NCBI GenBank assembly: GCA_026770705.1
Contig: JANJGN010000016.1
Span: forward strand, 112,158,001-112,222,000
Source: Isurus oxyrinchus
Taxonomy: Eukaryota
DNA: 64,000 bases
Direction of reading: 5' to 3'
Every line of letters starts with the position of its first letter. Positions within the stretch are counted from its first letter, which is position 1. A program made the position numbers and the translations under genes. Shown piece by piece: positions 33,331 through 62,166 of this stretch. The notes beneath the pieces are model-generated. The model saw nothing but the letters and a program-made list of their open reading frames with translations. It ran no database searches and was not told the DNA's origin.

Positions 33331-35955
33331 TGGATTCTGTTTTGTGGGCACTCCCTCAACATTCTTCCATGGGTTATTTCCTTTGTAATGACGTAAGTAA
33401 TAGGTCCAAGTAAAAGGTGCTGGAGGGTGCATTGTTATTCTGAAGAAAACAAGTGAGAATTCATTGAAATTTGGATTTGGATTTGGATTCATTTTTTAAA
33501 AAATTCTCGTTTCTGTCTCTTGAACTTGTGCAGTTTGTTTTTTGAGCTTTAAACCACAGAGATAATGGCAAAGTTGCCATTCCTGCATGTGTCCTATCAA
33601 GTGTTAAAATAGCAATTTGGTGATGTATTGGAAGAAAGACACAATGTAACTTTAATAAAGGTCTACAGTTACAAGATGAGATAGAAGCATTAATTTTATT
33701 CCCATTAAATATTTTCATGTCAGTTGCAGTACCTTTATCAAGCATCTCAGATCAAGAATAGCAAGTTCCTTATTCTATACCCAACAATGCAATTTAACCT
33801 GAAATTCAGAAGTGCACCTCTGCCAAAAAATTATGTTGTACCAACAAATTTTCACTTCCTTGTATCAAACGTTGGATCCTGGCATTGGAAGGGGTAAATT
33901 TTCTAATACCCACCCACTTACAATTATCAGTGATTCCTGAAATACACAGTTGTGTGTATGGAATTCAAGTTTAGGTGAGCGCAGATAAACGCAGCGTTTG
34001 CAGTGAGTGAGATTCAAACACACCTGGCAGAGTAGAGCTGATTTTCAGACTGCTAGCTGTGGATTCTTCAGTTTCAGGTATTGAAACTGCATGTTACACA
34101 CTCAGTACCGCTTTACTTTCTAACACATTTATATTTACCACAGTTACAAATGCAGTCCATTCGTCTACAGTTCAAAGATCAGGGAAAATTAATCACTTAT
34201 AGGGAGTTTGATTAATGATTCTACCCAAAATGTGAGACCATCGATCTGAGATTACAGACGAGCTACAGTGGATGTATGATGATGGCACAAGATAGATGAA
34301 CGTGACATACCATAACAGCAGACCTTCTGGTAGGAGTAACTACAAGCAGCAGCAATTTCAGGTGCTGACTGACCAGCTATGCAGTTGCAGTGTTTTTTTA
34401 GTTTTTATCCCTAATTCTCGAGTCTTTATGTAACTCGTTCTAGTGCTATGTAAAAATGGTGATTAACTCTGCTAAGAAAGTGTGGGAAGCAATGTTTGAG
34501 CTTTCAGTAATCAGCAGGACACCATTTTCAGGGTCATGAGCCTGTAACTCTGTTAAACAGCTTTGCTGATTAGCATTATTTGACTGCTGCTATTTCGATG
34601 GGTAGGCGCTTGGCACTGGTTTGTCACCTTCCCTGGATGCGTCAGCTGAGAGCAGGATTCCAGCATAAAGGTGGTATGGGCATCGGCCCCACAATCTATC
34701 ATGATCTGGCACTGTGTGCTGATTCTGTCATAGGAGAAGCAGCTAGCAAAGAAATAAAAAGAATCTCACGTTATTTACTGTAAGAAAAGCATAGATCCAG
34801 GTGTCGAGACTATTTGTCATTGCAGGATACAGATGTCATTTAGACCTATGCATTGCTGTTGTATTTTAGTATCACATGAAATTAAGGCTGTCAAATTTCT
34901 AAAATTCAAACCTAACGAAAGTCTGGTTTTTAAAACAGAAGTCTATTTTTTTCCCCATTTATTTAGTGATGTGATCTCATGGTGTGGATGCACTAGCAAG
35001 ATTTCTAATGAATTTCAATAGCAAGAGAAGTCATCAAAATGCAAGCTAAACCCCCAGCCCTAATCTATTCCTCAGTATGTTTTGGACTTTGGAAAAGGTG
35101 ACCATCTGAATTGCGCAATGGCTTTGTCATCATGCCAAGGTATTCATTAAAAATTTGGTATAAACCATTTTTAATAGATGCAATTATTCTACAATTTGAT
35201 TAAGTACACAAACATTTTAATTAAATATAAACACTTGCAATTCAAGTAATCAGTCCAGGATATTGTTACAGGCACACAGGTTTTTTTTTAAACATGATTT
35301 GCTGGTTACTTTAAATACTTATCAGGAGTTACTCTCAGGCTTATCTCAGAGCCATGCCCCAGAAATTCCTATGAAAAAATTACAAATAATAACAAATTTG
35401 GGTTTGTTACACTTAAACATTCTATGCCCTGTTGCATAATTCAGCTCAGAACGCCAGGTTAACCATAAGTTTAAAATGATCATGCGTCTCTTATTTCACT
35501 TTTAATTTCTCAATGGCCAATCCACACATTGGGATAAATGCAGCAATTGTTCTTTGCTTGTATCTGTAAATGGCAGCATGGGTTTTGCATTAGTAGCTAA
35601 AAATAAGATGAAAAGAAATGGAAAATATAAACAAATCAGCCACTGATATGGCACTGAGTGCCTGAAATAGAATAATCTTCAATTCTCAATTCTAAAAAGT
35701 AAAATAAAAGATGTGGAATAATTAAGATTCAAGGTTAAATTAGAAATTGCTTGACATTAGGATGCACCTATTCTACAATTTAAGGGCACAAACTTGACTC
35801 CCATAACGTTTTCCTGGAGTACTCCTTTAATGGAAAAGATAAAACTAAACAACTGGGGCATTGAATTGCAACAAAGAAAATAAAAATCCTCAATAAATGT
35901 GTCAATTTTGTTATACAACACATTGTAGGCATAGACAAAAACTGTCTCAACACAT

Positions 35956-36090
35956 TTAATGGACAATAGTTGGTTCTGATTGGAATTCCTGTTCCTTCCA
36001 TAAAGGGTAATTCAGCATGATCAGCTTTTTGGTATTCTTCAGTGAGTTTAGAAATATCATGTCTTCTTTGCTGAGTGAAAAATCAAAGAC
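35956..36090 (-). CDS. Aldo-keto reductase distal (alternative) terminal coding exon
   Basis: ttttacAG|GTC acceptor, phase 0; VFDFSLSKEDMIFLNSLKNTKKLIMLNYPLWKEQEFQSEPTIVH*; VFDFxLxxEDM is the AKR motif that follows IPKS...EN. Confidence 0.8.
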   Translation of the reverse strand, partial: VFDFSLSKEDMIFLNSLKNTKKLIMLNYPLWKEQEFQSEPTIVH

Positions 36091-36477
36091 CTGTAAAACA
36101 AATCACAGTCATCTGTCCCAGTGTATCACGAAAATACAGTCGCTACCCTGGAGGTTTGAAAAATAGCATTGTGTGGGGCAGATGCAATTATTCTTACAAA
36201 GGCAACTGTTATAATTTAGCCAAGATTATTGCACTGTTCAGCTTTCTCATGTAATGCAAGGAAAGACAATTAAACTTAAAACTAATAAAATTATAGCTCA
36301 ACAATTATACTACAGATTTTTGTAGATCCACAAAATCAGAGCATTAAAAAAATAGAAAACCATTCACTTCACACAAGCTTTGGGTGGGTTGTCCTTTAAA
36401 CACTACTCTCTATGCATGACACCCTCTGCTGACGATTTTTCCCATATTACCCTCTGAATATTATTATAATATTATGT

Positions 36478-39400
36478 CTCTACATCCCAGGGTACTAAAG
36501 GAGGTGGCTGTGGAAATAATGGATGTGTTGGTTGTCATCTTCCAAAATTTGGTAGATTCTGGAACAGTCCTGGCACATTGGAGGGAGGCAACTGTAACTC
36601 CACTATTTAAAAAAGGAGGGAGGGAGAAAACGGTGAATTACAGACCTGTTAGCCTAACCTCAGTAGTAGGGAAAATGTTAGAGTATTACAAAGGATGTGA
36701 TAATAGGAATTTAGAAAATATCAATGGAATTCAAAGTCAACATGGATTTATGAAAGGGAAATCATGTTTGACAAACCTACAAGCATTCTTTGAGGACGTA
36801 ACTAGCAGAATAGATAAGGGAGAACCATGGATGTGGTGTATTTGGATTTTCAGAAAGCTTTTGATAAAGTCCCACATAAGAGTATAGTGTGTAAAATTAA
36901 AGCACATGGGATTGGGGGTAATATATTGGGGAGAAGTCGCTGCAGACACTGCGACTCAGGAGGGGATCGAAGAGGACCCACTGTCAAAGAACGGAATAGC
37001 CCCAAACATTACATTGTTGTAGTGTTTCCATCCCTCCCTCCTCCTCAAACCTAAAAAAAAGAGAGAGGAAGAGGCAGTGCTTTCAGGAGTGCACCAGACC
37101 TGTGGGGGCACTCTTCTGAAAGTGGATTTTAAAGAAAAAGCAGCTGATTGGTGAGTAAATCCTGGGAGCAGACTTGGAAGGAGGAGCACCGGAGCGGTGA
37201 GTATAAATCTAGCTTACCTTGGGGATTCGCAGCCTTGTCTCCAGGGAGCAGACTCGGAGGGAGGAGCACCGGAGTGGTGATCTCGGGGCACAGAGTAACT
37301 GAAGCCAAGACTGAAAAAGTGATATCACAGGAAAGCTGTGACCTGACTGGTTGGTAGGAAATCTGCACCAAATTTGAAAAAAAAACACTGCAAGCTAATT
37401 AATAAATTAATTAACTAAGTAGAGATGGCTGGGCAGGTGAGGTGCTGTAGCTGTATGATGTGGGAGCTGGCAGATCCCACTGTGAGCCGCAGTGACCACA
37501 TCTGCAGCAAATGTAGATTGCTGGAGGAACTCCGGCTCAGATTTAATGAGCTAGAATCTGAGCTCCGGATGCTGCGGCACATCCGGGAGAGGGAGAGTTA
37601 CCTGGACACTTTGTTTCAGGAGGCGGTCACACCTGGTAGATTAAGTACCTCAAGTTCGGTCAGTGGTCAGGGTCAGCAGGGTGTGACTGCAAGTGAGGCA
37701 GGTAGAGGGATCCTGTGTTCAGGAACAGAGGTGCCTCAGCTCTTGGCCTAGTCCAACAGGTGCAAGGTACTTGCTCCATGTATGGATGAGGAACAAGGCT
37801 GTAGGGAGGATGAGCCAGCTGACCACGGCACCGTGGCACAGGAGGCCATTCAAGAGCAAAAAGACAAGTGGTGATTGTAGGGGATTCTATAATTAGGGGA
37901 ATTGATAGCATCTTTTGTAAGCAGGATTGAGAGTCCCGCATAGTATGTTGCCTGCCCGGTGCTAGGGTGAGGGACATCTCTGACCGGCTCGAAAGAATAT
38001 TGGAGAGGGAGGGGGAGGATCCAGTTCTTGTGGTCCACGTCGGCACAAATAACATAGGTAAGACTAGGAAAGAGGACCAGTTTGGGGATTATCAGGAACT
38101 AGGAACTAAATTAAAGAGCAGGTCATCAAGGGTTATAATCTCTGGATTACTACCCGAGCCACATGCAAATTGGCATAGGGACGCGAGAATAATGGAAGTA
38201 AACACGTGGCTAAAGGAGTGGTGCGGGAAAGAGGGGTTCCATTTCCTGGGTCACTGGCATCAGTATTGGAACAGGAGGGATCTGTACCGTTGAGATGGTC
38301 TCCACCTGAACTGATCTGGGACCAATGTTCTAGCGCAAAGGGTAAATAGGGTGGTCAACAGGACTTTAAACTACAAAGTGGGGGGAGGGAAGGGTAAAAA
38401 TTCTGACTAATGGGAAACAAAGCAGCAGGTTAGCATGTGGGGGGGGTGGATTCAACTTCATGGAAATTTATGAAAAAACTGAAAATTGAGAGCCCAGGAC
38501 AGGCTATTAAATTCTCCAGAACACAAAATAGGACAGAAAGGGCTCGGAATCTAACTTTAAGCACATCAGATAAAGGACGTCAATGAGAAAGGAGACGGGA
38601 AATACAGGACTGAATGTGTTGTATCTAAATGCACGCAGTATACAAAATAAGGTAAATCAGCTTGTGGCGCAGATTGAAATTGGCAGGTATGATGTGGTGG
38701 GCATCACGGAGACATGGCTGCAAGGGGATCAGGACTGGGAGCTAAATATCCAAGGATATACATCCTATCGAAAAGATAGGCAGGTTGGCAGAGGGGGTGG
38801 GGTTGCTTTGTTAGTAAGAAGCTGCTCAGTAAGATAACAGCCCATGGTGTTAGAGGCAAGGTACGTGCATGGATAGAAGATTGGCTGTCTGGCAGGAGGC
38901 GGAGAGTGGGTATAAGGGGATCCTTCTCAGGATGGCGGCTGGTGACTAGTGGAGTTCCACAGGGGTCAGTGTTGGGACCACAACTTTTCACTTTATACAT
39001 TAGTGATCTAGATGAAGGAATTGAGGGCATTCTGGCTAAGTTTGCAGATGATACAAAGATAGGTGGAGGGACAGGTAGTATTGAGGAGGCTGGGAGGTTG
39101 CATAAGGATTTGGACAGGTTAGGAGAATGGGCAAAGAAGTGGCAGATGGAATACAATGTGGGGGGGAAGTGTGAGGTCATGCACTTTGGTAGGAAGATTA
39201 GAGGCATGGACTATTTTCTAAATGGGGAGAGAATTCAGAAATCTGGGGTGCAAAGGGACTTGGGAGTCCTCGTCCAAGATTCTCTTAAGGTTAACTTGCA
39301 GGTTGAGTCGGTAGTTAGGAAGGCAAATGCAATGTTGGCATTTATTTCAAGAGGACTAGAATATGGATGTGCTGCTGAGGCTTTATAAGGCTCTGGTCAG

Positions 39401-41042
39401 ACCACATTTAGAATATTGTGAGCAATTTTGGGCCCCGTATCTCAGGAAGGTTGTGCTGGCCCTGGAGAGGGTCCAGAGGAGGTTCATGAGAATGATTCCA
39501 GGAATGAAAGGCTTAACATATGAGGAACATTTGAGGACTCTTGGTCCATACTCGATAGCGTTTAGAAGGATGAGGGGGGGATCTGATTGAAACTTACAGA
39601 ATACTGAAAGGCCTGGATAGAGTGGACGTGGGGAAGATGTTTCCATTAGTAGGAGAGACTAGGACCCAAGGGCACAGCCTCAGTAAAGGGAAGACCTTTT
39701 AGAACAGAGATGAGAAGAAACTTCTTTAGCCAGAGAGTGGTGAATCTATGGAATTCATTGTCACAGAGGGCTGTGGAGGCCAGGTCATTGAGTGTATTAA
39801 GACCAAGATAGATAGGTTCTTCATTGGTAAGGAGATCAAAGGTTACGGGGAGAAGGTGGGAGAATGGGGTTGAGAAACTTATCAGCCATGATTGAACGGC
39901 GGAGCAGACTCGATGGGCTGAATGGCCTAATTTCTGCTCCTATGTCTTATGGTCTTATTGGCATGGATTGAGAATTGGTTAGCAGACAGGACACAGAGAT
40001 TAAGAATAAATAGGTCTTTTTTAGAGTGGCAGGTAGTGACTAGTAGGTTACCGCAGGGATCAGTGCTTGGGCCCTCGCTATTCACAATATATATCAATAA
40101 TTTGGATGAGGGAACCAAATGTAATATTTCCAAGTTTGCTGACAACATGAAAATTGGTGGGAATGTGAGCAATGAAGAGGGTGTTAAGAGGCTTCAAGGC
40201 GATTTAGACAGGTTAAGTGAATGGACAAATACATGACAGATACAGTGTAACGTGGATAAGTGTTTGGCATGAAAAACAGAATGTCAGAGTATTATTTAAA
40301 AAGTGATAGATTGGGAAATGTTGATGTATAAAGGGACCTAGGTGTCCTTATACACCAATCACTGAAAGCAAGCAGGTGCAGCTTAAGAAGGCAAAAGGTG
40401 TGTTGGCCTTCATTGCAAGAGGACTTGAGTACAGGAGCAAGGATGTCTTACTGCAGCTGTGCAGGGCCTTGGTGAGACCACACCTGGAGTAGTGTGTGCA
40501 GTTTTGGTCTCCTTACCTAAGAAAGGATATACTTGCCACAGAGGGAGTGCAGGGAAGGTTCACCAGACTGATTCCTGGGATGGCAGGATCGTTGTATGAG
40601 GAGAGATTGGGCCGACTAGGCCTGTATTCACTGGAGTTTAGAAGAATGAGAGGCGATCTCATTGAAACATACAAAATTCTGGCAGGGCTGGACAGACTGG
40701 ATGCAAGGATGATATTTCCTCTGGCTAGGGGGTCTAGAACAAGGGTTCACAGTCTCCAAATACGGGGTAGACCATTTAGGACTAAGATGCAAAGAAACTT
40801 CTTCACTCAGAGGGTGGGGAGCCTATGGAATTCTTTACCACAGAAGGCTGTGGAGGCCAAGTCACTGAATCTATTTAAGGAGGTAACAGATAGATTTCTG
40901 GACTCTAAAGGCATCAAGGGATATGGGGAGAGTGCAAGAGTATGGCATTGAAATAGAGGATCAATCATGATCATATTGAATGGAGAAGCAGACTCGAAGG
41001 GCTGAATGACCTACTTCTGCTTCTATTTTCTATGTTTCTATA
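36478..41042 (+). mobile_element. CR1 LINE RT/3' region (outer copy), split at 36930-39955
   Basis: HPRVLKE, NYRPVSLTS, YLDFQKAFDKVPH...GIGGNIL | AWIENWL...PQGSVLGP, KFADN. Confidence 0.9.
36930..39955 (+). mobile_element. Inner CR1 with 5' UTR, ORF1 (zinc finger plus SGNH esterase) and internally deleted ORF2; TSD TATTGG
   Basis: MAGQVRCCSCMMWE...CSKC, VVHVGTNNIG, LYLNARSI, GVPQGSVLGP, KFADD; TATTGG at 36924-36929 and 39956-39961. Confidence 0.9.
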
Positions 41043-41497
41043 AAATCGATTCCATGAAGATTGGTTGAAATGGTTAAATTAATTCTACAGTATCTGTAGT
41101 GGCTCTTCAGATCATCATTGTTTTTTCAGTGTCATTTGCTGCAAATAAGGTCTGCATGAGGAATCCTTAGCTTCACAGAAGTTACTGGTGGAAGAAAGAG
41201 TTTAGACCAACTTTAAAGTCACACAGGACATCAGCAATCAGATCTGGCATAGTTCAATCTAGTTTAGGAAGAATGGGTCTGTAATTGTAGCTAAAGTTGA
41301 ATTAGCCCAAGAAATAAAAACAGGGCAACTGAATAAACCACGAGTAAATGCAGTATCTGTGGAGTCTGATGTGCAGACAGCATACCCAAGTTACAAAACA
41401 AAAATAAAAATACTTGGAAAAACTCAGCATGTCTGGCAGCATCTGCAGAGAGGAACACATTTTACTTAAGTTACAACTCCAGCTGCACCAAGTCCTC

Positions 41498-42041
41498 CTG
41501 TCTCAACTTAGATTTACACATTAAGAATTGTCACTTGGGTGATGTCATTGAAATGGTCGGAGAGTTGAAAGAAAATTGCAACCTTAACCTGGAGGTTGAG
41601 AACCAAGTGCTTAATTGTTTAAGTTACCACAATATCTTCATTTATTGTTTAAAATGTATTAATGCATAGCTTTTTGAGCAATCATCAATATATTTTATGT
41701 AGGTATTGTATTCCTTTTCCATGCAGTCTTTTCTTGTTAACTTCAGATTATCTTTGTGCGGTGTCAATAACCAGTGACCTCAATTTTCTTAAGCTAAACA
41801 AGATCAGTAAATATAACAATGGCAGATTGTATTTAAGATTCGCATGAGTATTGCCATTTGGGTATCCACAGAGTACAATAAATATATTAAACAATAAATG
41901 AATATATTGTGGTAACTTAAACAATTAAGCACTTGGTTCTCAACCTCAAGGTTAAACTTGCAACTTTCTCTCAACTCTCTTAACATTTCAAAGACATCAC
42001 CCAAGTGACATTTCTTAATGTGCAAATCTAGGCTGAGACAG
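41498..42041. mobile_element. Foldback element with ~155-bp inverted arms and imperfect 11-bp flanking direct repeats
   Basis: 41498-41652 is the reverse complement of ~41887-42041; accaagtcctc (41487-41497) versus accaagatctc (42042-42052). Confidence 0.75.
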
Positions 42042-42237
42042 ACCAAGATCTCTGGTTAATGAATTTATGTGGGGAATCATGGAGTTAACAAATAGACTGT
42101 TTTGGTAAAGGGATCCTGCAGTTTTATTTAGCAATTTATTCACTGTAGTTTTACAATACCTTCTTTACTGCAGTCAGATTTTTAAATTGTAATTTAACAA
42201 CCTGGATATGGATGATTGCTTACTTTCGCTATGTATT

Positions 42238-42525
42238 TTTTTTATTCGCTCATGGGATGTTGGCGTTGCTAGCTGGTCTAGCATTTATTGCCAATCACTA
42301 ATTGCCCTTGAGAACTGAATGGCTGGCTAGGCCATTTAAGAGGGCATTTAAGAGCCAACCACATTGCTGTGGGTCTGGAGTCACATGTAGGCCAGACCAG
42401 GTAAGAACAGCAGGTTTCCTTCCTTAAACAACACTAGTGAACCAGATGGGTTTTTACAATAATCGACAATGGTTTCATGGTCATCATTAGGCTTTTAATT
42501 CCAAATTTTTTTTATTGAATTCAGT
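42238..42525 (-). mobile_element. SINE sharing its 3' tail with the CR1/L2-group LINE
   Basis: 'aaccacattgctgtgggtctggagtcacatgtaggccagacc' also occurs at ~17745 and ~54810, and inverted at ~63430. Confidence 0.7.
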
Positions 42526-43107
42526 ACTGGGATTGATAGTTTTTTTTATTTTTAAAAATTAGCTGATAGTTAAATCCTTTGGTTTAGTTAATTTTCATTA
42601 AACAAAAGTGTTGATGATTATTTAAAATAAAACAGTATCTGTTATAGAGTTTAAATGTTCCTGTTTTAATCTGTTCATAAAATGAAGTACCGTAAGTAAA
42701 TTAATGTAATGTAAATCAATGACATGTCTAATTTGAAAGAAGTATCTGGAAAGGGACTGGTATTATGTGAAAGATGTACTTTGGGCAATTGTCTATGTCA
42801 GAGTAAGAGGAATTAATACATTGTTTTCAAAATAAGTTGAATTTATTTCTTGAGTGGTGTTGACTAATATAAGTCTGAAGCTTAAATTTGTCTGAAACCA
42901 CACCAAACATGCCTGCCTGAAATGAGAAAAGGTAGATTAATATTTCAGGTTGAGAATTTTCATCAGGATATCAGAGTGTCAATTTGAAACACAGTCAAGG
43001 ATGCAAAAAGTCTATTCAAGAAGACAATCTGTTCAAGGTCAACCCACTAATACACTAAAGCTTCCATCTTTGCATTTAGCTGCATTTTGGGTATTCTCAA
43101 TGCTTTT

Positions 43108-43225
43108 GGGCGGAATTTTACAGCAGTGGGATTTTACCTTCCCACCAAAGTCAGTGGAGTTTAGAATGGCTCGCCACACTTTACAGCTCTGGCCCCACCT
43201 CAACAGGGCTGTAAACCTCCGGCCC
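43108..43225. mobile_element. Tiny (~118 bp) Harbinger-type MITE
   Basis: Imperfect TIRs gggcggaattttac / gtaaacctccggccc; flanks ttt / tta. Confidence 0.45.
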
Positions 43226-43467
43226 TTATCTCTACCACGTTGTTATCACAGGAGATGGATGTGTGTGTAAATAATTTACATCTTCTCGGGTCAAAAAGAA
43301 ATGTAGCTTTGCCAACACCACATATATCCTGACAACCAAATCTAATATAAATCAAATATGAATTACTCTTGAGAAAATAAATTCTTGATTCAATCCATTT
43401 TAAATTTACTGTTCACCAACTTCAATCTTTTATCCTACTTTCTTGGCTTACTGGGAAATCATGGATA

Positions 43468-44378
43468 CAAGGGAGTTCTCCTGGTGTCCTGTTCAGCATT
43501 TATCCCTCAATCAAAGTCACCTTAGGCTGAATTTTCCCCCCATCGGTGGGGAGGGGCGAAGTTGATGGGCGGGCGCAGCCGCGCTTCTGATCGTCGCCCC
43601 CAATCAGAGGCATGGCGCCATTTTACGTGGGCGGGCCAATTAAGGCCCACGCAGCATGACGTCTGCAGAGATGTGCTATGCGATCCCTGTGCGGGTGGGG
43701 AATACCTATATCGAGAGTGCGTTCTTTCGCACATGTTCACAAAAGAGCACATTCATCTCCCTGAGGCTAAGTACTGGCTCAGCGAAATCAGCTCTACTTT
43801 CAACAATATTAAAAATAGAAAAAAAAAATTCTCTTACATGTCCCCTCAGGTGACAATGGCACATGAGCTGGGACATGTTCATAATTTCCATGGCAACTTC
43901 ATTAAAATTTTAAATACCCTACATGAAAGCTCATCCCGCCGGTGGATGAGGTTTCATGTTTGTTCTCGTTGCCGCTGGGGCTCCTGGCCTGCCCCAATTG
44001 CTTAATTGATCCTGTCGATGGCCTCAATTGGCCATTGACAGGTCGGCGGGCGCACAGCTGATTTTGCTGCGCCCCCACCTACCTGAAAATTTAAATGGGG
44101 CGCGGTGACATCGGGGGTTCCGCCCGACATCATCCCGCGTCACTTTACGCGTCGGTGAGCAGGCCCCACCCCCACTCGCTGACGGTAAAATCCTGCCCCT
44201 TAAATAAATTTTCTGCTCATTTACTTCGTCACAGCTTGTGGTATCTTGCTGTGTGAAAATTTACTACTGTATTTCTCTACAATACGACAATGATTATACT
44301 TCAAAAGTAATTAAACGGTCCTGAAGTGTTTTGGGATCTGCTGAGGTTGTTAGATGTACTTCGTAAATGCAAATTCTT
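43468..44378 (+). mobile_element. Deu-domain SINE split by a MITE
   Basis: 'gggagttctcctggtgtcct...tatccctcaa' before the MITE and 'tgtggtatcttgctgtgtg...cttcaaaagtaattaa' after it. Confidence 0.7.
43524..44198. mobile_element. Harbinger-type MITE, 675 bp, TSD CTT
   Basis: TIRs aggctgaatttt / aaaatcctgccc; CTT at 43521-43523 and 44199-44201. Confidence 0.8.
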
Positions 44379-44389
44379 TATTCGCATTC

Positions 44390-44985
44390 TGCAATTGTAT
44401 CGGACTTTAGTGAGGTCACACTTGGAATCTTGTGTATAGTTTTGGTCTCTTTACCTAAAGAAGGATATAGTCGCCTTAGAGGGCGTGCAATGAAGATTCA
44501 CGAGACTGACTTCTGGGATAAGAGGGCTCTCCTATGAGGAGCAATTGAGTGGACTAGGCCTATACTAGGCCAACATTCTCTGGAGTGTAGAAGAAATGAA
44601 AGCTGTTTTCACTGAAACATACATCATTCTTAGCAGATGTAACAGGGTAAATGCTGAAAGGTTGTTTCCCCTGGCTGGAGAGTGTAGAACTAGGGGCCAT
44701 AGCCTCAGAGTAAGGGGTTGGCCATTTAGCATGGAGATGAGGAGAAATTTCTTCACTTTGGGTTTGTGAATCTTTGGAATTCTCTACACCAGATGCTGTG
44801 CACGTTCTGTCAATGAATATATTCAAGACTGAGATGGATAGGCGCTTGTGCACCAAGAGAATCAAAGGATATAGGTGTAAGACAGGTAAGTGGAGTTGAT
44901 GAGAAGTACATGATCTTACTGCATGGTGGGGCAGGCCCGATGGGTCGTATGGTCTACTCCTCCTCCTATTTCTTATGTTCTTATG
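44390..44985 (+). mobile_element. CR1 3' fragment
   Basis: Similar to 20960-21545; tail 'tcttatgttcttatg'. Confidence 0.75.
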
Positions 44986-45110
44986 CAAGAAATGTGCCAT
45001 GGTGTCCTCCCAGACTGGTTAATTTGTTAGGCAGATGTAAATGGGAATAGATTCCCTCCTAACATTATGAAGTGCCCAGGATGGGGCTAATGACCAGTAC
45101 AAACAGCATA

Positions 45111-48100
45111 GGGTGGAATTTTCCAGATGCCCCCTCTCCCACGGCGGCAGGTTTAATGGTGGGTGGGGGGAACAATTCAATGGGAGCTGAAAAAATCTAT
45201 TTACCGCTGACGTTAAATGATGGCGGGAATGTTTGCTTCTGCCCATCATGGCAGGTCGCCATTCTTGCCAGAGGCTGGCATCAAACCGTTTTGCATCCTG
45301 TTAATGCAGATGAAGACCTGACTGGAAATCCCCCACCCCGCCCAATCATCTGTGCTGCCAGTAGGATTGCATGCTAGTCCAGAACATGTCTGGACCAATG
45401 TGGCATCCGCACTTCAGGATTTACCAGGAAGAAGGTCTGGGAGAATGGAAGGTCTCCAGCAACTGCAGACCCTGCAACACCAGGTGCAGCAGTGGGTGGG
45501 TGGAGCATCAACCACGTGGATCTTCTTGCTGCAGCAGCTTCCAAGGGGTGGATCACTTACTGCAGCAGCTTCCAGGAGGTGATCTTCTAGCTGCATGAGG
45601 TACTGTTGGGTAGTGATGGTCTGTGCTGGGGGTGGGAGGTATTAGATAGGGACGAGAGGAATGAAGAGGTGGGATGGGGAAGGTTGGGGGTGGTAGGGGA
45701 AAAGAGAGATGCTTGAGGGGGTCGTAGAATGGGTGAGGTGGATTGGAGCAGCAGGGTGGGAAGGGCCATGGTGGAGTGTCAAGATGGGGGGTGTGCAGGT
45801 GTGAACGGACATGGGGGGCGGGTGCAGGTGTGAACAGGAATGGGTGGGGAAGAGTAGTAGGGTTCAGAGGGAGGGGTCTGTGGTGTCAACTGATAAGTCC
45901 TGGGGGGAATTGGGGAAGGTATGGTGAGGGTTAAAGGGGGCAGTGGGAGCCAGTAGGGTGGGAGGGTGAGGGTTCGGCTATGATGGGTGAAGGGGAGCTG
46001 ACGGCTGGTGAAGGGGATATGGAAAGAGAAACAGATTCTGAGGTTCAGCAGAATGGGGAGGGGGGCAGATCTACTGTCACGTAGGTGGGCTCCTCAGGAA
46101 GGTAGCCGATGTGAACATTCACTTGCACGATGTGGAGGGTGACGGGGGCAGATTGAAAGGTAACCATGGGAAGGCCAAATATTATACCTGATGTGGGGTG
46201 GGGGGGGTGGGGGGGTCAATGGTTATGGCGGGGAGAGAGTGTGGGTCACGGGGGGAGAGGTAAAGGTATTGGACTGGACATTGAAAGTTATACACACCAT
46301 GGCCGATCGCAACTATCCAGAGCCTCATGATCAAGACCTCAAGATGCTACATGGGAGTTAGGTCATCAGGGGTGGGCAGAGAAGCATGACATCCCAACTG
46401 GAGAAGTGAAGGGGAACCCCAGCATGTAGTAGTTACAATGCTAGGGCATTGGAACAGATGTCTGTTGGGTAAAGGCTCAGCGTGCGCAGGAGGCTTCTTG
46501 CACATGACTTGCAAGGGCCCTGGCAAATACTTCTGCCTCCCTGCACATGCATGATTCTGGGGGACATAGGTCCAACCTGGGATGTCCCCCAAAGATGGTG
46601 TGGGGTTGGGGGGTGGAGGGGGGGAAGGGGGCTTAAGGATTACGAATCACAAATAAACCACATTAGACTTCATTAAAGTGCATGTGTACTCTAATTACAG
46701 AAGTGTCATAACATTAACAATCATAGTCCCCTGTGCAACCACATGTGAAATCGAAACTTCTAATCTTGTGTTCCCTACCACTTCTTCTAGGTGCTCCACC
46801 GACACCCGCAGCAGGGGTGGAGGCAGCCTGCTGACCAGTTGGCGCTGTTTCCTTGGCTGGCCTTGATAGCCATCCTCTGGAGGCCTGGAGGGCCCCGGCT
46901 TACTTCGGCTGTCTTGCTGCGGGCAGCTGCTCCCTCTGTGGTCACAGAGGATGAGGCTGAAGGGGTCACAGGCAAGTGGAATTCTGAAGGGCTGGACTCC
47001 TCAGAAAGTCCTGAGTGGAGGTTCCAGGGGTGTCCAACAACCGCTCCTCCTCCCTTTGGGTGCCCGAGGGCCTCTGCCTGACCCCTTGAGGGGCCGGGAC
47101 ACCTGGAGGGAGGTCAAGGTGCCCACCCCCCTCTTGCATAACCATTGCAAAAGATCACCCATGGCTATAGTGATGGAGTGCAGGTCTGTGCACATCTCTG
47201 GCAGAAACTGGACGTTCTGCTGGACCAGGTTCTCCATGGCGTCTGCCACCCTCCCCATGGAGACCTTGATGTGCACACGCAGCACCACTTCATCAGAAAG
47301 CAGGTGGATGGACTCTTCCACCTCACGTGCCACTCTGTTGAGGGCCTCTTTCTGATGTTCTCCCGCCTCTTACAGTATCTCCAACATCTCATGCAGGAAC
47401 GATCCCAGAAGCTCGTCATCCAACTTGGATGTCACTGGTGCCTCTTCCCCAGCAGTCCTCCGAGTGCCGGTGAGCTTGGCTGACACTGCCTCCTCCTGCT
47501 GTAGACACGTGGCTGGGTGGTGACCACCAGAATGTCAGACACTGCCTGAATTACATCTAGCACCCAAGTGAGGTGTGTGTCTCTGTGCTGGTGGAGGGTG
47601 CAGGTGACTGCTGTGATGCTTCTACTCCTCCCCAATGTCCTCTGTGAGCTGCAGGAACTGCTGGACAGGGTTTCCTCTTCTTCCCTTGCCCTCGCCCTCA
47701 TCCTGCTGGCACCTATAAGTGAGAGAGAAGAGAGTGAGTGACTGCATGAGCAGTCTCCAACATGGAGGAACGCGTGGCCCTTAGGTTTCTATGCGACATG
47801 CAGAGGATGGGGTTGACAGCAGTTGGGTTTCAGAGACACCCATACAAAACACCCATTGGATTGTGTGCCATCTGATTGATGGACTGCAAGTTGTCCAGAA
47901 GGGTTCTTGGCCAGCACCCTCCAGAGCGGTGAGTCCATGCAAATAGAAGGATAAGGCTCATAGAGGCATTTCATTAGCACGGCTTGCTGGTGCCCTCAAT
48001 GCTTAACTCCCTCCCCCCCAACCCCCCACAATCCCCAGGCAGCATCTGAGCTCTCTGTATGGAAGGGTCAGGGACCTGCAGTGGCCTCTCCACCTGCAAA

Positions 48101-48703
48101 CTACATGGACTGCAGTGAGGCTATAAGGCATCATCTTATCATAATGAGTAGCTCTTTTATGCATGGGCCACACAAATGGTGCCCTTGTCACCGAGGCCCA
48201 CATCCCCTTTACCATTCAGTGAGATGAGTGTGAGCAGGTGAGGGTTCACTTACCCTGGTGGAGCACTGCAGGGCAGTCCCTCTGGTGGAGGCCCTAGGCA
48301 CTGAGCACCCTGGAGACTTCCTCCCATGCAGGGTTGGTCACATGGCTCGGCCTCCTCCTTCCATCCTCTGGGTACAGGACACCCGCTCCCGGCTTCCACT
48401 GCATTAAGCAGAAACTTCCGAGGAAGCATCACTGAATCAGGGAACTGGAGTTCCCTGTGATCGGCAGGCTATTTCCTCCTTCAACGGTGGGTAAGTTGAT
48501 GTCCTGCCTTTTAAAGATAGCACCAGGATATGACAGCGGGTCCTGCCCCCCCCGCGTGAAATGTCGTGAAACTCCTGACTGCGTAATTAATTTGGCCATC
48601 ACTGAGCAATTCGGTGTGAATTCCCAACGGCTTCCGTGGCTGGAATCACTTCCATTGTCCGTCCTCACTACGGGACTTAGTCCTGGAATGGAATATTCCA
48701 CCC
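45111..48703 (-). mobile_element. Non-autonomous Harbinger element (3.6 kb) carrying a decayed Myb/SANT-like gene
   Basis: 14-bp TIRs gggtggaattttcc / ggaatattccaccc (1 mismatch), flanks ATA / ACA; FSDAS...NAVEA...LYPEDGRRRPSHVTNPAWEEV at ~48253-48450 with a GTAAGT donor; coiled-coil-like ORF 47001-47333. Confidence 0.75.
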
Positions 48704-49509
48704 ACAGAATGACAGCATACAAACACAACATGAGGGGCCATCAAATGGAGCAAACAAAGTATTGCAGAATGGCATTACACCAATCTAAAGGGGAGAGAAT
48801 GACAACTCACAAAAATAAGTGGTATAATGTGGCTTTACCCCAATACAGGGGGCAAAAGGTATCAGCACAGAATCATAGGAAGGACAGAGAGAACAAACCA
48901 ATACACTTACACAAAGTGGCTGCACAGTACAGAACGCGGCACGATAATCTCACCAACTGTACAAAGATACAGTGGCACAGAGCAGCAAGCACACCAGTAC
49001 ACTGTGGTGCAGAGTGGCATTTCACTAATATTCAAAGTGAAAACTGACCATAGCGTCATATTCATTCAGGATTAAACTTCACTGATTCCAATCTTAAACT
49101 CCAGATGTGGCTCTGACACAAATTAAATTTGGTATTTCTTTGCAACATATTTTGATACAAAAAATACAAAAGGCCTGATAGAGACCTCAATTCCTGTGGT
49201 GAAACTATTATTTACTTTGCAGCAAACATTAAAGTACTATTCCAGTTATGCCCTGTACTGGGAGGTACACATATTTTCAAAATAAGTCTCTCTCTTATTT
49301 GTACATTTACTTAATCCACTTTCTTCTTTTTCAATGCCACAAGCCACCACAGGCAAAAATAGCAGTGACACGATCAGCTCTCAACTCTCACTGGAGCTGG
49401 TCTGAATCTGTCCCTGGGAAGTGTGGATCCCCAACAACTTTCCATGTGAGATTATGTCTAGCCTCTGGACATGACCTCCTGTGATGGTTTGGCTGAGGAG
49501 ACCAGGCAT

Positions 49510-52500
49510 CCACTTATATTCCTTGAAGAAGTTCTGTTCCTCTCTGCGACAAGATTTCCGTATCTCTCTGTTGCCTTGTTCACCTTCTTTGCTTTCCATT
49601 TCCCTCCTGGTGTTTGACAAGGTGTTTACTAAAACCCGCTTTCACAGCCATATCTCCTTTCTCAGTGACTGTCTCCGTCTCCGACTTACCCCACGTGGAT
49701 TTCAACTGAAATTCCACCCCTCATCTTTCGAACCCACCCAGGATGACCGGTATTTCCGGGACATAAAACGTTTCTCAGACTGCTGTTCCCGTCACATTCT
49801 GAAATCCACACTCAGTGCCATGCGCCGCCATATGAACACACTCGACCTCTCCCTCCAGCAGCACCGCCGTACCCTTTTTCAAAGCTGCGCGTGCCCCCAG
49901 TTTCATTTTATCCTTCGGCTCATCCGACGCCTCAACAAGAAACTTTTTCTCTTTCTCTCAACTGCTAAGGAACGCAAGCTCCAACAACTCATCGACACCA
50001 ACACCCATCTAGGACCCTCCACCCCGGCCTGTCCCTCCGTCCCCACCCCATCTTCCAATCCCAGCCCCAGCCGTGTATTCACTATACCCCCTGATCTTTC
50101 CCTCTCCGATGCTGAACGTTCAGCGCTCAGCAAAGGACTTAGTTTCATACCCTTATGCCCTCACCTCAATGAATTTCGGGCTCGGCATGATACTGAACTC
50201 TTCTTTCGCCGTCTTCGTCTTCGGGCTCACTTCTTTGGGCAGGAGTCCTCTCCCAGTTCAACTGATCCTTTTACCCATCTCCAATATTCTCCCTCCACCT
50301 GGACCCCTCCCTCTGGATTCTTACCTTCTCTTGATCTTTTCATTGAGAACTGTCGGCGCGACATTAGTCGTCTCAATTTCTCTGCTCCTCTCACCCATTC
50401 TAACCTGTCTCTCTCTGAACTTACTGCACTCCATTCTCTCAGGCCCAACCCTGACATTGTCATCAAACCCGCTGACAAGGGTGGTGCTGTTGTTGTCTGG
50501 CGCACTGACCTCTACCTTGCGGAGGCTGAGCGTCAACTCGCAGACACTTCCTCCTACCTCTCCCTGGACCATGACCCCACCACTGAACATCAAGCCATTG
50601 TTTCCAGGACTGTCACTGACCTCATCTCCTCTGGGGATCTCCCTCCCACAGCTTCCAACCTGATAGTCGCCCAACCTCGGACGGCCCGCTTCTATCTCCT
50701 ACCCAAAATCCACAAACAGAACTGCCCCGGTAGACCGATCGTCTCAGCTTGCTCCTGCCCCACAGAACTCATTTCTCGTTATCTTGACTCCCTTCTCTCT
50801 CCCCTTGTCCAGTCCCTTCCCACCTACATCCGTGATTCCTCTGACACCTTACGTCACATCAACAATTTCCAGTTCCGTGGCCCCAACCACTTCCTCTTCA
50901 CCATGGACGTCCAATCCCTCTACACCTCCATCCCCCACCAGGATGGTCTGAGGGCCCTTAGCTTCTTCCTCGAACAGAGGCCCGAACAATCCCCATCCAC
51001 CACTACTCTCCTCCGTCTGGCTTAACTTGTTCTCACGTTGAACAATTTCTCCTTCAACTCCTCTCACTTCCTCCAAATAAAAGGTGTGGCTATGGGTACC
51101 CGCATGGGCCCCAGCTATGCCTGTCTCTTTATGGGGTATGTGGAACATTCCTTGTTGCAGTCCTACTCCGGCCCCCTTTCACAACTTTTTCTCCGGTACA
51201 TCGATGATTACTTCGGTGCCGCTTCATGCTCTCGTCGGGACTTGGAAAAATTTATTAATTTTGCTTCCAGTCTCCACCCCTCCATCATTTTCACGTGGTC
51301 CATCTCTGACACTTCCCTTCCCTTCCTTGACCTCTCTGTCTCAATCTCTGGTGATAGACTGTCCACCAATATCCATTACAAACCCACCGACTCCCACAGC
51401 TACCTCGACTACAGCTCCTCACACCCCGCTTCCTGTAAGGACTCCATCCCATTCTCCCAGTTCCTTCGTCTTCGTCGCATCTGTTCCGATGATGCTACCT
51501 TCAAAAACGGTTCCTCTGACATGTCCTCCTTCTTCCTTAACCGAGGTTTTCCACCCACGGTTGTTGACAGGGCCCTCAACCGTGTCTGGCCCATCTCCCG
51601 CGCATCCGCCCTCATGCCTTCTCCTCCCTCCCAGAAACATGATAGGGTCCCCCTTGTCCTCACTTGTCACCCCACCAGCCTCCGCATTCAAAGGATCATC
51701 CTCCGCCATTTCCGCCAACTCCAGCATGATGCCACTACCAAACACATCTTCCCTTCACCCCCCTTATCGGCATTCCGTAGGGATCGCTCCCTCCGGGACA
51801 CCCTGGTCCACTCCTCCATCACCCCCTACTCCTCAACCCCCTCCTATGGCACCATCCCATGCCCACGCAAAAGATGTAACACCTGCCCCTTCACTTCCTC
51901 TCTCCTCACCGTCCAAGGGCCCAAACACTCCTTTCAAGTGAAGCAGCATTTCACTTGCATTTCCCCCAACTTAGTCTACTGCATTCGTTGCTCCCAATGT
52001 GGTCTCCTCTACATTGGAGAGACCAAACGTAAACTGGGCGACCGCTTTGCAGAACACCTGCGGTCTGTCCGCAAGAATGACCCAAACCTCCCTGTCGCTT
52101 GCCATTTTAACACTCCACCCTGCTCTCTTGCCCACATGTCTGTCCTTGGCTTGCTGCATTGTTCCAGTGAAGCCCAACGCAAACTGGAGGAACAACACCT
52201 CATCTTCCGACTAGGCACCTTACAGCCTTCCGGTCTGAATATTGAATTCAACAACTTTAGGTCGTGAGCTCCCTCCCCCATCCCCACCCCCTTTCTGTTT
52301 CCCCCTTTTTTTTTCCCCTTTTTTTCCCCCAATAAATTATATAGATTTTTCTTTTCCCACCTATTTCCATTATTTTTAAATATTTTAAAATCTTTTATGA
52401 TCCCTCCACCCCCACTAGAGCTGTACCTTGAGTGCCCTACCATCCATTCTTAATTAGCGCATTCGTTTAGATAATATCACCAACTTTAACTTTAACACCT

Positions 52501-52800
52501 ATGTGTTCTTTTGTACCATTGTCGCTGACATCTTTTGATGATCTGCTTCTATCACTGCTTGTTTGTCCACACAACCACCTCTCTCTCTCTCTATCTCTCC
52601 GTCCCCCCCACACACACACCTTAAACCAGCTTATATTTCAACTCTTTCTTGGACTCGAACTCAAGTTCTGTCGAAGGGTCATGAGGACTCGAAACGTCAA
52701 CTCTTTTCTTCTCCGCCGATGCTGCCAGACCTGCTGAGTTTTTCCAGGTAATTCTGTTTTTGTTTTGGATTTCCAGCATCCGCAGGTTTTTTTTTGTTTT
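49510..52800 (+). mobile_element. Near full-length Penelope-like retroelement (RT plus GIY-YIG) with one premature stop
   Basis: ORFs 49481-51025 and 51038-52267 are in the same frame, separated by TAA at 51023-51025; IKPADKG, PKIHK, MDVQSLYTSIP, RYIDD, VYCIRC-YIGET. Confidence 0.93.
52664..52702 (+). ncRNA. Minimal hammerhead-like motif with core variant CUGUCGA
   Basis: AGTT-CTGTCGA-A-GGGTC-atgag-GACTC-GAAAC-GTC-AACT. Confidence 0.6.
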
Positions 52801-54429
52801 TATCACTTATATGGTGTGATGGATAATGGATTCACATCCTAATGCTCTCGTAGAGAGCAATGAGCAATGGTGCTGATGCCGTGCTGCTATACCATGAGTC
52901 TTCTACTCTGCACTGATGTAAAATGCACAATTAGAAGCAATACATCCCATTTTCTCCTCCCTGCACTGCAAAACTTCTGTGGGGGAAGTTGTCTGTCTCT
53001 GCTGCAATTGTTTTGGTGGCTTATGCTGCAGGGGGTGTGTGAACTTTGTTTTCTTTTGTTACACTCTAGGTGTGGCTTCTTTTGCTATTGTCTTGGTCAT
53101 GACACAGGATACCAGTATTCATCCAAGCATTTGCATATTTTATTCTGCACAATGGAATAAACAGTGAATCACGACAAGACATAATTGAAAAACAGTTATA
53201 TCTTTAGGGGTGTGGATTACATGTGCATATTGCTTCACTGTTATCCTAACAAAGGTACGATAAAGAGCATAATATGCCAGTATCAGTTTCTATAGATTCT
53301 AAAAGTTATTACATGCAGATTACTGAATAAGGAAGTAGCATCTATAGATGCATGAATAAAATATGCAATTTAGATGAAAAGAGCAGTGGTTTAAATGTGA
53401 AGCCCACTTCAGAGATCCTATATATCTAGAGAGCTTTTGGGAAGGACTCACATAAAAAGCTACAGAGATGATTTCCATGTTTAATTTCTTAGTAATATTC
53501 AAAATTGGGAAAAAATCTTTAAGTTATATCATCTTCAAATAGTGTTAGGATGTTTCTGGTACAGACCGTTGACTGTTTGAAAGATATTACTGTGCTTTCA
53601 GTCTCACTCAGCTGCAATCTTTTTTTACCATCTGCTATTTGATTATATGATTAATCAGCAGAAGCAAGTAAAGGTCAGTTGGAAATCTGACTGAAGAAAA
53701 ATGATAATCCCTAGTAATCCCTAGGGTATCACACAAGGAAAAGGGTGTAATGAAAGAAATTTGTAAATTACAGATTAGGAAGATCTGAGAAGTTCCAGAA
53801 CATCAGTAAGCAACACTGACTCTTCTGAGAAAAATAAGGGACTTGGTCTGTTTTAAAGTGATGTGCCTGTACGAGTGTAAAATTCCCCCAGTTGTGCTCT
53901 TTCTTCCTGCACAGTTCTCACTGGGATATGCACTTTCTGCTGCTGAGAGGACAAATGGAGGAATTCGCCCTGGGCATTTGGTAATACTGATCTTCAGCTG
54001 ACTGCCTGGAATATTGCAATAGCCCCATCATTGAGCTTTCCTTTGATATTCTTGCTCTCACTGCATCTGGTAAACTAAAACAGAATGTTCCTCCATCAAG
54101 CTAATCTGAATATGTTCCCAGTCCAGTGCAGCTTCATGTCAAAGAATCATAGAGGTCTACATCACAGATGTCATTTTGGCTATTTGCTAGAGCAACTCAA
54201 AACAAACCTATTGACCTTGTCTTTCTCCATGGCTCTGTATCTCCTTCTGCTCTAAATGTTTATTCCCTTTCCTCTTAAAAGATTTAATGATCTCTGCCTC
54301 AATCATTCCCTTGTGGCAAAGCATGTGTAAAGAAATGTCCCCTAACCTCTCTTCTCACTGAGTGACCATTTTAAATTTATGAATTTAAATTTTTAATTTT
54401 AATCTGCCGTCTTTACCCATCTAGCCTAT

Positions 54430-56770
54430 ATATGACAGTAATGTGGTTACTCTAACTTCCCTCCAAAATGGCCTAGCAAGCCACCCAGCTGCACCAAACT
54501 GCTACCGAAAAGTCGAATAAGAATAAAACCAAACGAATCACCTGGCAACAACCATGGCACTGGAAGTGACATAGGCACACCCTCCTCACTAGCATCTGGG
54601 GGGGGCTTGTGTCAAAACTGGGAGAGCCTCCCCACAGCTTAGTCAAGGAACAGCCATAACACCAGATCGTACCTGATAGCCATAGTCCCAGACTCCTCCA
54701 TCACCATTGCTGGGCATGTCCTATCCCACTGACAGGACAGACCCACTAGAGGTGGTAACAGAGTGGTACAATTGGGTGGCTTGCCAGGCCATTTCAGAGA
54801 AAGTTAGAGTCAACCACATTGCTGTCACATGAAGGCCAGACCAGGTAAAGATGGCAAATTTCTTTCCTTAAAGAACATTAGATGGATTTTCACGACAATC
54901 TGCTGGTTTCATAATCACCATCACTGAGACTAACTTTTTAAGTTGTGATTTATTAATTAATTGACTTGAAATTTCCCCTGTCTGCTGCGGTGGGATTTGA
55001 ACTCATGTCTCCAGGGCATTCGTCCAGGCCTCTGGATTACTAGGCCAATAACATTACCACTATGCTACTATCCCTGTTGAAAATTCTCTCAACTTTCCTA
55101 TCGTGTTGGTCAAAGGTGATGATGCCATCATATCCTTTCCTCCTTGCCCTTTCCTTGGTCTTTCTTCTTTGTGGCCCAGGTGAAGTCAGGGTCTCAATGG
55201 TACATTTATCATGGTATATTCCATTTTCTGGCACTGTTTCATGCCAGAGATAGAAACCTAGTTTTAAGGAAAGACTTCAGACTGGGAACTATTTTCACTC
55301 AAGCAAAGAAGGCTAAGAAGAGATTTAATAAAAGTTTATTTAAAGTTATCAAATGATTTAAAAGACTGAATAGAGAAAGTCTATTTTCACAGTCAGGAGG
55401 GAGTGGCTCTATCAGCCCTCAACATTGAGTCTGGGTTCCATGAAGTCTCTTGACATCAGATCAGACATGGACAAGGAAACCGCCTGCAGATTACCACCTC
55501 CCACTCTCCCTCTCAGCGCCACAAACACCCCCAACCTCAATGATTCCAATGCAAAAGACAAGGCTGAAGAATTTACAACCATCTTTAGCCAGAATTGCCA
55601 AGCAAATAACTCATCTCGGCTTCCATCCAAAGACCCCAGCATTGCAGATGCAAGTCTTCAGTCAATTCAATTCACTCCAAGTTATATCAATAAACAGTTG
55701 CAGGCTCTCGTTACGGCACAGGGTATGGGCCCTGACAGCAGCCTGGCTGTAGTGCTGATGAATTGTGCTCTAGGACGAGCTGCGCTCTAGCCAAGCTGTT
55801 CAGTGCACCTATAACACTGGCGTCTACCCAACATTATGGAAAATTAGCCCGTTATATCCTGTCCACAAAAATTGGACAGATTTAATCTGGCCAATCACTA
55901 GTCTACTCTCAATCGGTAAAATGATGGAAGGTATCATTGACAGTGCTATCAAGTGGCACCTAGTTAGCCATAACCTGCTCACCAATGCTCAGTTTGGATT
56001 CCAGACCTCATTACAGTCTTGGTCCTAACAAGGACGAAAGAGCTGAATTCCAAAGGTGAAGTGAGAGTCACTGCCCTTGACATCAAGGCAGCATTTAACT
56101 GAGTGTGGCATCAAGGAGCCCTATCAAAACTGGAGTCAATGGAAATCAGGGAAAACTCTCCACTGGGTGGAGTTTTACCTAGCACAAAGGAAAATGTTGT
56201 GGTTGTTGGAAGTCAATCATCTCAGTTCCAGGACATCACTGCAGGTGTCCCGCAGGGTGGTGTCTTAGACCCAACCAGGTTCAGTGGCTTCATCAATGAC
56301 GCTCCCTCCAACTTAAGGTCAGAAATAGGAATGTTTACTGATTGCAGTGTCCAATACCATTTGCAATTCCTCAGATTCCGAACCAATCTGTGTCTGCATG
56401 CTGCAAGGCCTGGGCAAATTTCAGGTTTGGGCCAATAAGTGGCAAGTAAGGTTTATGCCACATAATGCTAGGCAATGACCATCACCATTGCCAAACCCGC
56501 CACTTTCAACATCAGTGAGTTACCATTGACTAGAAACTTAACTGGACTAGCCATATAAATACTGTAGCTACAAGATAGGTCAGAGTTTTGGAATTCTCCT
56601 GACTCTCCAAAGACCATTTACAAGGCACAGTCAGGGGTGTGATGTAAATACTTGCCTGGAAGAGTGCAGCTCCAACAACACTTGTGAAGCTTGCCACCAT
56701 CCAGAACAAAGCAGCCTGCTTGATCAGCATCCTATTTACCACCTTAAACATTCACTCTCTCCACCACCGG
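54430..56770 (+). mobile_element. Degenerate CR1/L2-group LINE with a SINE inserted at ~54770-55070 (minus strand)
   Basis: AKDKAEEFTTIFSQNC, WHQGALSKLESM, AGVPQGGVLDP; same family as 13790-15232. Confidence 0.75.
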
Positions 56771-57025
56771 CTAAGACCTATTTAAATATGCCACAGTACC
56801 ACAAGAAATCAAAAGTCCTCACTTATGATAACTAGTCCCAAAATTTGCATTTGACGTTTCTGAGGTGTTACTTCCTGATGTTATATTTGCAGAAAGTTGC
56901 TCAATGCATTTTCACAAAATCAACCGTTATAAACTTAAACTATAAAATGTTTAACACACATTTCAATAATGAATACACTCTTCTAATTTATAAACAAATG
57001 AGTGTGAATAAAATTTTGACATACA

Positions 57026-57121
57026 TCATTCGATATTTGTAGGATCCCAGGACACATGCAGGCCATTATGCATTCCATTTAGAACTGCAACATCATCCTC
57101 CGTAAGAGAAAAATGCAATAC
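57026..57121 (-). CDS. Aldo-keto reductase proximal terminal coding exon (ZK1290.5-like C-terminus)
   Basis: cctcatAG|GTA acceptor, phase 0; VLHFSLTEDDVAVLNGMHNGLHVSWDPTNIE*. Confidence 0.85.
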   Translation of the reverse strand, partial: VLHFSLTEDDVAVLNGMHNGLHVSWDPTNIE

Positions 57122-58530: not shown

Positions 58531-58589
58531 TAGAGTAGGCAATAGTAAGTCATTAGATGCGGTCAGAATCAGAGGACAAGATAAAAAAA

Positions 58590-62106: not shown

Positions 62107-62166
62107 CTGACAGTTTTCCCAAATCCTTTCTTTCTTTGTAGACTTTGGAATGGTGACAACTCCATT
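62107..62166 (-). CDS. Aldo-keto reductase internal exon (NADPH-binding IPKS motif); the gene continues beyond the window end
   Basis: caAG|AATGGA...TGTCAG|GTAAGG; NGVVTIPKSTKKERIWENCQ, phase 0 at both ends. Confidence 0.9.

Follow-up and report, generated by a model that had tools for sequence, protein, structure and literature searches.

Can a single aldo-keto reductase (AKR) gene equip one enzyme core with either of two C-terminal tails? The question is raised by 64,000 nucleotides (nt) of Isurus oxyrinchus DNA (assembly GCA_026770705.1, contig JANJGN010000016.1, positions 112,158,001 to 112,222,000; hereafter the window, in whose coordinates all positions are given). A first-pass annotation had described there, on the minus strand, one AKR exon that can splice in frame to either of two homologous last exons. 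The feature is real and deeply conserved: judged from its orthologues, this is one gene with two alternative in-frame last exons, both of them transcribed in those orthologues. All three exons lie where the annotation had put them, with exactly matching translations, phase 0, AG acceptors and open frames. The shared penultimate coding exon (62107-62166; 60 nt, 20 amino acids (aa), phase 0/0, NGVVTIPKSTKKERIWENCQ) carries an IPKS motif and is preceded by AG and followed by GTAAGG. The coding part of the proximal last exon, A (57026-57121; 96 nt), encodes 31 aa and ends in TGA; that of the distal last exon, B (35956-36090; 135 nt), encodes 44 aa and ends in TAA. Tail A consists of a helix followed by H-[DN]-G-x-H-V-S-W-D-P, and tail B of a helix, then K-L-I-x-L-x-Y-P-L-W and a variable shark extension. 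Exon A matches the A-tail profile, which itself includes exon A, with E 3e-21; exon B shares 44 of 45 residues with basking shark isoform X1. As A and B each hold a stop codon, they lack the common downstream coding exon of internal mutually exclusive exons.

Full-length and tail profiles, run over the 3,144 six-frame segments of at least 12 aa in the window, matched just these three exons (best E 2e-10, 3e-21 and 8e-20). The next-best profile match in the window had E 0.2 and tblastn was concordant, which agrees with the earlier statement that no other AKR exon lies between A and B. This interval (36091-57025, minus strand) measures 20.9 kb (20,935 nt), and repeats having another copy within the window cover 35% of it. 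A separate paralogue between A and B was considered, and neither the profiles nor tblastn gave a match to one within the window. Because the upstream core exons lie past the end of the window, orthologues served for the analysis of the whole protein.

We classed the tails of 198 named proteins from 137 species by A and B profiles. The counts of two-tailed species given here are lower bounds among the matches listed, and a tail missing in one species does not amount to its absence. Set aside in the wider AKR comparison were 41 of 150 representatives, which fell outside 230-365 aa or had no anchor motif, and the pairwise comparisons left out fused turbot models. Tail A was carried by 116 proteins and tail B by 68, while 8 had other endings and 6 were without the IPKS exon. 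At least 29 of the 137 species had both tails. The last 80 core residues of the A/B pair were identical in 28 of these 29 species and matched at 79 of 80 positions in the remaining one. The two-tailed species span sharks, rays, bichirs, sturgeon, paddlefish, teleosts, coelacanth, frogs, a lizard, birds and both monotremes. With another round of searching the count rose to at least 32 of 188 species; the core comparison covers the 29, and the 3 species from the further search stand outside it. In zebrafish, two curated RefSeq proteins represent the two forms (NP_001017779.2 for A, NP_001278275.1 for B), and RefSeq NP records are transcript-supported. For the A form, zebrafish and Xenopus each have a cDNA clone record as well. 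Among 26 unnamed proteins, 11 carry B, on contigs of 1,004-3,098 nt; these are shorter than the genomic locus and are thus likely spliced mRNA. Both junctions of the shared exon are therefore present in orthologue proteins, and the B tail is found from sharks to monotremes.

The long distance between A and B, and the second gene copy that percomorphs do possess, could suggest that exon B is either a relic of a separate paralogue or a pseudogene. However, the window holds no other AKR exon, the frame of B is open and conserved, and B is joined to the same core in at least 29 species, which refutes this reading and leaves it next to no probability. The two-tailed orthologues exclude the cases that the annotation had set against its own claim, namely no conservation, a separate paralogue or a pseudogene. 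A third isoform class was seen in great white shark (P0016), cloudy catshark (P0009) and reedfish (P0213), in which the 60-nt exon 62107-62166 is skipped in frame and the upstream exon is joined to tail B; without the IPKS cofactor residues, such an isoform is likely inactive. In the skate cluster (P0017), all 7 listed read-assembled proteins carry B, and in the zebrafish cluster (P0124) 7 of 8 carry A and none B. This contrast is a weak hint that isoform ratios may differ by lineage or tissue.

Which enzyme carries the two tails? The shark gene is orthologous to zgc:110366 of zebrafish and encodes an AKR5-like reductase. An exon B query alone returned two shark proteins, whose clusters consist of shark records named 'ZK1290.5-like / glyoxal reductase'; such names, glyoxal reductase included, are assigned automatically by the databases. 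Catshark orthologues (P0012, P0013) score 164-165 bits against Pfam Aldo_ket_red, with a curated cut-off of 24; for the three short exons by themselves, Pfam was uninformative. All 54 B forms and all 59 A forms have the catalytic tetrad (D51, Y56, K81, H114), and K242, S243, R248, E251 and N252 are retained in 53-54 of the B forms and 56-59 of the A forms. The IPKS motif and the R, E and N of the same exon are the cofactor-binding residues of AKRs, and AKR membership predicts NAD(P)H-dependent carbonyl reduction. The predicted models form a (beta/alpha)8 barrel (mean predicted local distance difference test score, pLDDT, of 89 and 84), and all listed Foldseek matches are AKRs. The nearest structures are trypanosomatid prostaglandin F synthases (PGFS) and Bacillus YvgN/YtbE, which the A model matches with a template modelling score (TM-score) of 0.85-0.90 and 38-43% identity. 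PGFS, YvgN and YtbE are, we assume, members of AKR5. Sequence identity is 41-46% to T. cruzi and Leishmania PGFS, YvgN and YtbE, 38-39% to T. brucei PGFS and 32-38% to AKR1 chains. An AKR family comprises proteins at least 40% identical to a family member (PMC9427786), and by these identities the gene would belong, marginally, to AKR5. The DkgA equivalog model (NCBIfam NF008598) gave 218 and 212 bits, below its cut-off of 425. In a core tree of animal orthologues only, all 35 vertebrate rows formed one clade (support 100/99) with amphioxus as sister (94/88). Monotremes were the only mammals among 261 named proteins, and no therian orthologue was among the matches listed. Two elephant shark (Callorhinchus) models (P0271, P0396) had altered motifs in the catalytic region and neither tail; the Callorhinchus gene may be a pseudogene, or the models may be poor.

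How old are the two tails? In a tree of 30 A and 30 B tails (29 species plus the window), a single split (support 100/99) divided A from B, and the division needed one change versus about 20 in shuffles. A and B thus form separate clades, and the pair is older than the split between sharks and bony fishes. Comparison with other AKR tails identifies tail A as ancestral and tail B as derived. The tail of the sponge Dysidea ends in LHDGRHVSWDPT, and W-D-P tails occur in amphioxus, Owenia and Lingula. The profile of the distal part of A scored above 20 in 40 of 106 other AKR tails and that of B in 0 of 106. The B distal motif was found in jawed vertebrates only among the matches listed, from which lamprey and hagfish are absent. 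Constraint was measured by protein identity. Across 32 species, mean pairwise identity was 0.74 for A (positions 19-31), 0.68 for B (positions 22-33) and 0.73 for the last 80 core residues; between A and B it was 0.05 in the distal part. By this measure, both tails are constrained at about the level of the core. Tail A is 31 aa long in 111 of 116 proteins. Among 59 distinct B tails, K22, L26, P29 and W31 are kept in 93-96%, and in 58 of them the length past W31 varies from 1 to 19 residues. Nematode and crustacean orthologues (P0231, P0264, P0399, P0402, P0412) have a third, longer tail with a conserved LPDGYKL. We rejected these tails as old relatives of B, given a best distal score of 7.7, within the background (maximum 9.7 of 106; mean of true B tails 51). 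One tree grouped the Ascaris tail, on a long branch, with B, a placement that we read as an artefact.

What would the swap change? Tail position 1 corresponds to aldose reductase residue 275 in a gap-free alignment, B Leu26 falls on residue 300 in the B-form profile alignment, and tail positions 24-28 correspond to Cys298-Ser302, provided no gap intervenes. Residues 298-302 line the specificity pocket of aldose reductase as part of loop C, according to the available text of PMC8708191. Positions 24-27 read S/T-W-D-P in A (W, D and P in 95-96%) and I-H/T-L-T in B, where Y-P-L-W follows. This register bears out the earlier view that the swapped part is the C-terminal loop C. Because the catalytic and cofactor residues lie upstream and are common to both forms, it supports a change of substrate pocket and not of cofactor. 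The shared IPKS exon, spliced to either last exon, would yield the same catalytic core with a different loop C, which would line the substrate pocket differently and shift substrate preference. A would keep an ancestral small-carbonyl (methylglyoxal/glyoxal-type) reductase pocket; the B loop, more hydrophobic and aldose-reductase-like, would suit a bulkier lipophilic substrate, and the two forms would act on different substrates. A substrate-lid swap on one AKR5-like core is our best explanation, and we think it somewhat probable. Only tentatively do we propose the fuller account, in which jawed vertebrates have drawn two enzymes from this gene for some 450 million years, A, little altered since sponges, serves ancestral detoxification, B acts under tissue-specific control on a vertebrate-specific lipophilic substrate (a prostanoid, steroid or lipid aldehyde, for example), percomorphs lost B and therians lost the gene.

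Several observations weigh against the lid swap. In the AlphaFold models, residues 274-298 of B have pLDDT below 50 and residues 271-285 of A have 50-60; the loops are not placed, and pocket contact therefore rests on the sequence register. Human terminal swaps tend to avoid ligand-binding residues, as far as the accessible part of PMC9741552 describes them. None of 60 percomorph proteins, which represent 45 species and were retrieved mostly by an A-type query and from the listed clusters, had tail B; 9 of the 60 came from a B-form query, which returned 13 B and 22 A among the remaining teleosts. In sturgeon and paddlefish, B is truncated and without Y-P-L-W (P0220, P0221, P0223, P0224), ending in F-[TS]-C-C or in an unrelated extension. 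On these sequences, B is dispensable in places. Several percomorphs have two gene copies, 67-68% identical and both with tail A (P0401/P0454, P0408/P0455, P0423/P0430, P0121/P0426, P0201/P0447), and the fused turbot models suggest that the copies lie in tandem.

Could the tails, both of them in use, instead affect where the enzyme is located, how stable it is or what it binds to, and leave its pocket alone? The low confidence of the B tail in a monomer model, its hydrophobic and basic character, and the enrichment of human terminal swaps in exposed residues, with depletion of ligand-binding ones (PMC9741552, same part), would fit such a role. However, the fixed differences between A and B map to aldose reductase 298-302, and the variable length of B after W31 argues against a signal that requires a free C-terminus. 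We regard this reading as possible but rather unlikely. Alternatively, B might be a dead-end isoform, of low activity or regulatory, by which transcripts are drawn away from active A. Its non-appearance in percomorph proteins and its truncation in sturgeons point that way, as does the fact that all 3 named isoforms cleanly skipping the IPKS exon end in B. A precedent exists in truncated AKR1D1 splice variants, which the portion of PMC7965358 available to us describes as unstable and nearly inactive. The retention of four residues in nearly all distinct B tails speaks against a dead end, and so does the presence of B in every listed read-assembled protein of the skate cluster; we consider it distinctly improbable. 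The substrate-lid swap remains our preferred reading.

How did exon B arise? The first-pass annotation proposed an old exon duplication and pointed to a helix motif shared by the two exons. The helix, V-x-x-F-x-L-x-x-E-D, is indeed present in both; it is, however, common to all AKRs and so demonstrates homology of A and B, not duplication. The two can be aligned at positions 1-22 and no further (hhalign probability 97%, E 5e-11), with 37 of 66 nucleotides identical and 7 of 30 thereafter, and their flanks have no similarity over the 3.1 kb of each compared. B could have arisen on the vertebrate stem when A was duplicated in tandem, the helix (positions 1-22) being kept and the loop rebuilt. 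This is the simplest reading of the origin of B, although not a demonstrated one. Against it, a free 28-column tree, built without AKR1 tails, does not join A and B (approximately unbiased test of the clade, p-AU 0.18). Homology and great age of the exons thus stand from the original proposal, and duplication is neither shown nor rejected. Exon B might alternatively have been captured from another AKR gene, possibly AKR1-like, onto the AKR5-like core. The B-form profile reaches residue 300 of aldose reductase loop C and the A form ends at 292. It is on account of this longer reach that we retain capture at all, as an unlikely origin. The B-tail profile also scores AKR1B7 at 25 bits, about equal to A tails (mean 23), and the failure of the free tree to join A and B agrees with capture too. 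On the other side, B is somewhat closer to A (44.5% identity over 18 residues) than to 82 other AKR tails (39.5%); it has the same strand, phase and junction as A with no other AKR remnant in the window; its Y-P-L-W is reached by no PDB match; and the A+B clade is not rejected by the tree test.

How might the choice between A and B be made? The shared donor, GTAAGG (62101-62106, minus strand), matches 8 of 11 positions of the U1 complement, a score attained by 0.9% of GT sites, and is a strong donor. From it, the intron to exon A (57122-62106, minus strand) covers 4,985 nt, with a U-poor acceptor tract (6 of 20) and a branch-point-like CTAAC at 57167-57163; the intron to exon B covers 26,016 nt. 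Candidate non-canonical poly(A) signals for A (56882-56992, minus strand; TATAAA at 56992 and AATATA at 56887) sit in about 250 nt of unique sequence past the stop. A LINE-like (long interspersed element) repeat begins at 56772, just downstream of exon A (55552-56772, defined by self-BLAST cover of the window; reverse transcriptase-like open reading frame (ORF) at 56103-56438). The first canonical AATAAA for A lies 1,686 nt past the stop, beyond this repeat. Candidate signals for B (34958-35831, minus strand) are ATTAAA at 35831 (+125) and AATAAA at 34963 (+993), and the first kilobase of its 3' sequence is repeat-free. This hexamer layout would fit a weak end at A and a strong one at B. Splicing into A, the nearer exon, and cleavage at its weak poly(A) signal would then race against 21 kb of read-through and splicing into B. 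We infer that the choice may be made by such alternative polyadenylation, to which C-terminal homologous swaps are attributed in the available text of PMC8373072. Two points count against this mechanism: the poly(A) hexamers are about as frequent as by chance (0.59 per kb each), and both acceptor tracts are unexceptional, with 21% and 43% of YAG sites equally pyrimidine-rich. It is also conceivable, though improbable, that no alternative polyadenylation occurs and that A is a stop-bearing cassette exon spliced on to B as 3' untranslated region, its skipping yielding the B protein. A donor-like GTATGT at 57024-57019 (minus strand), one base past the A stop, would serve such splicing, and the remoteness of the first canonical AATAAA agrees with it; the site, however, matches the U1 complement at 6 of 11 positions, and 18% of GT sites do equally well. 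RNA pairing that would loop out A found no support, with 1 inverted pair bracketing A (90 nt, 74%) versus 4 direct ones, and Rfam gave 0 matches.

Does the gene resemble known systems? In the accessible parts of Martinez Gomez et al. (PMC8373072, PMC9741552), homologous C-terminal exon swaps account for 77 of 236 human tandem exon duplication events and are mostly ancient. By the available account of that class (PMC8373072), the shark gene is similar in that two homologous 3' coding exons are alternatively used on one core, and in being ancient and conserved to fish. In contrast to the class, duplication is only a proposed origin here, and the part exchanged is a predicted loop of the substrate pocket, a kind of region that the class tends to avoid (PMC9741552). 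The human swap catalogues, in the parts available, do not contain the gene, and their sole AKR row is AKR1C3. That the shark gene is missing from them is likely because therian mammals are without it. AKR precedents with homologous alternative exons are human AKR1C3, Drosophila CG10638 (ninna nanna) and C. elegans Y39G8B.1, in the available portions of PMC9741552 and bioRxiv 10.1101/2024.05.10.593616; as described there, alternative splicing lets a single AKR locus produce two related enzymes, as here. The AKR1C3 swap differs in being N-terminal and human-specific, according to these portions. In ninna nanna just 24 aa are common and the predicted cofactor is changed (bioRxiv 10.1101/2024.05.10.593616, available text), whereas the shark forms have about 254 aa in common, including all catalytic and cofactor residues. 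Trypanosomatid PGFS and Bacillus YvgN/YtbE have similarly short loops, and tail A aligns with their R-V-G-P-D-P end; they differ in being single-tail enzymes. The B loop beyond position 26 has no counterpart among solved structures. From the limited text available on them, UGT1A/UGT2A first exons, CYP4F3, KHK, PKM and ACOX1 are alike in that exon choice tunes an enzyme on a common core; these events are promoter or internal mutually exclusive ones, and that of the shark gene is terminal.

Literature searches by gene name and topic, with subscription journals outside their coverage, found no paper on the event; both isoforms are already annotated in RefSeq and apparently unstudied. The surprise is moderate, the class being well known and the isoforms annotated. 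What loop C does for AKR specificity has been learnt from truncations and from comparing paralogues that differ throughout. This gene offers a natural pair differing in loop C only and kept by selection across jawed vertebrates. Zebrafish, Xenopus and chicken-like models would allow the pair to be tested. Human-centred catalogues are without this deeply conserved exon swap, which is also one more independent example of homologous exon swapping among AKRs.

The window holds other elements as well. A single-exon ORF of a rhodopsin-family receptor (7tm_1, E 2e-38) lies at 5701-7002 on the minus strand; the annotation's label for it, S1PR1, is a plausible one. Between the AKR and receptor genes, an intact single-exon ORF of 447 aa (9616-10959, plus strand) has a DDE_Tnp_4 domain (E 5e-34) and is presumably Harbinger/HARBI1-like. 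A young Penelope-like retroelement with a GIY-YIG domain (49475-52267, plus strand) sits between A and B and has ORFs of 516 and 413 aa in the same frame, with one stop between them. A more decayed Penelope-like copy lies near 30750-31960.

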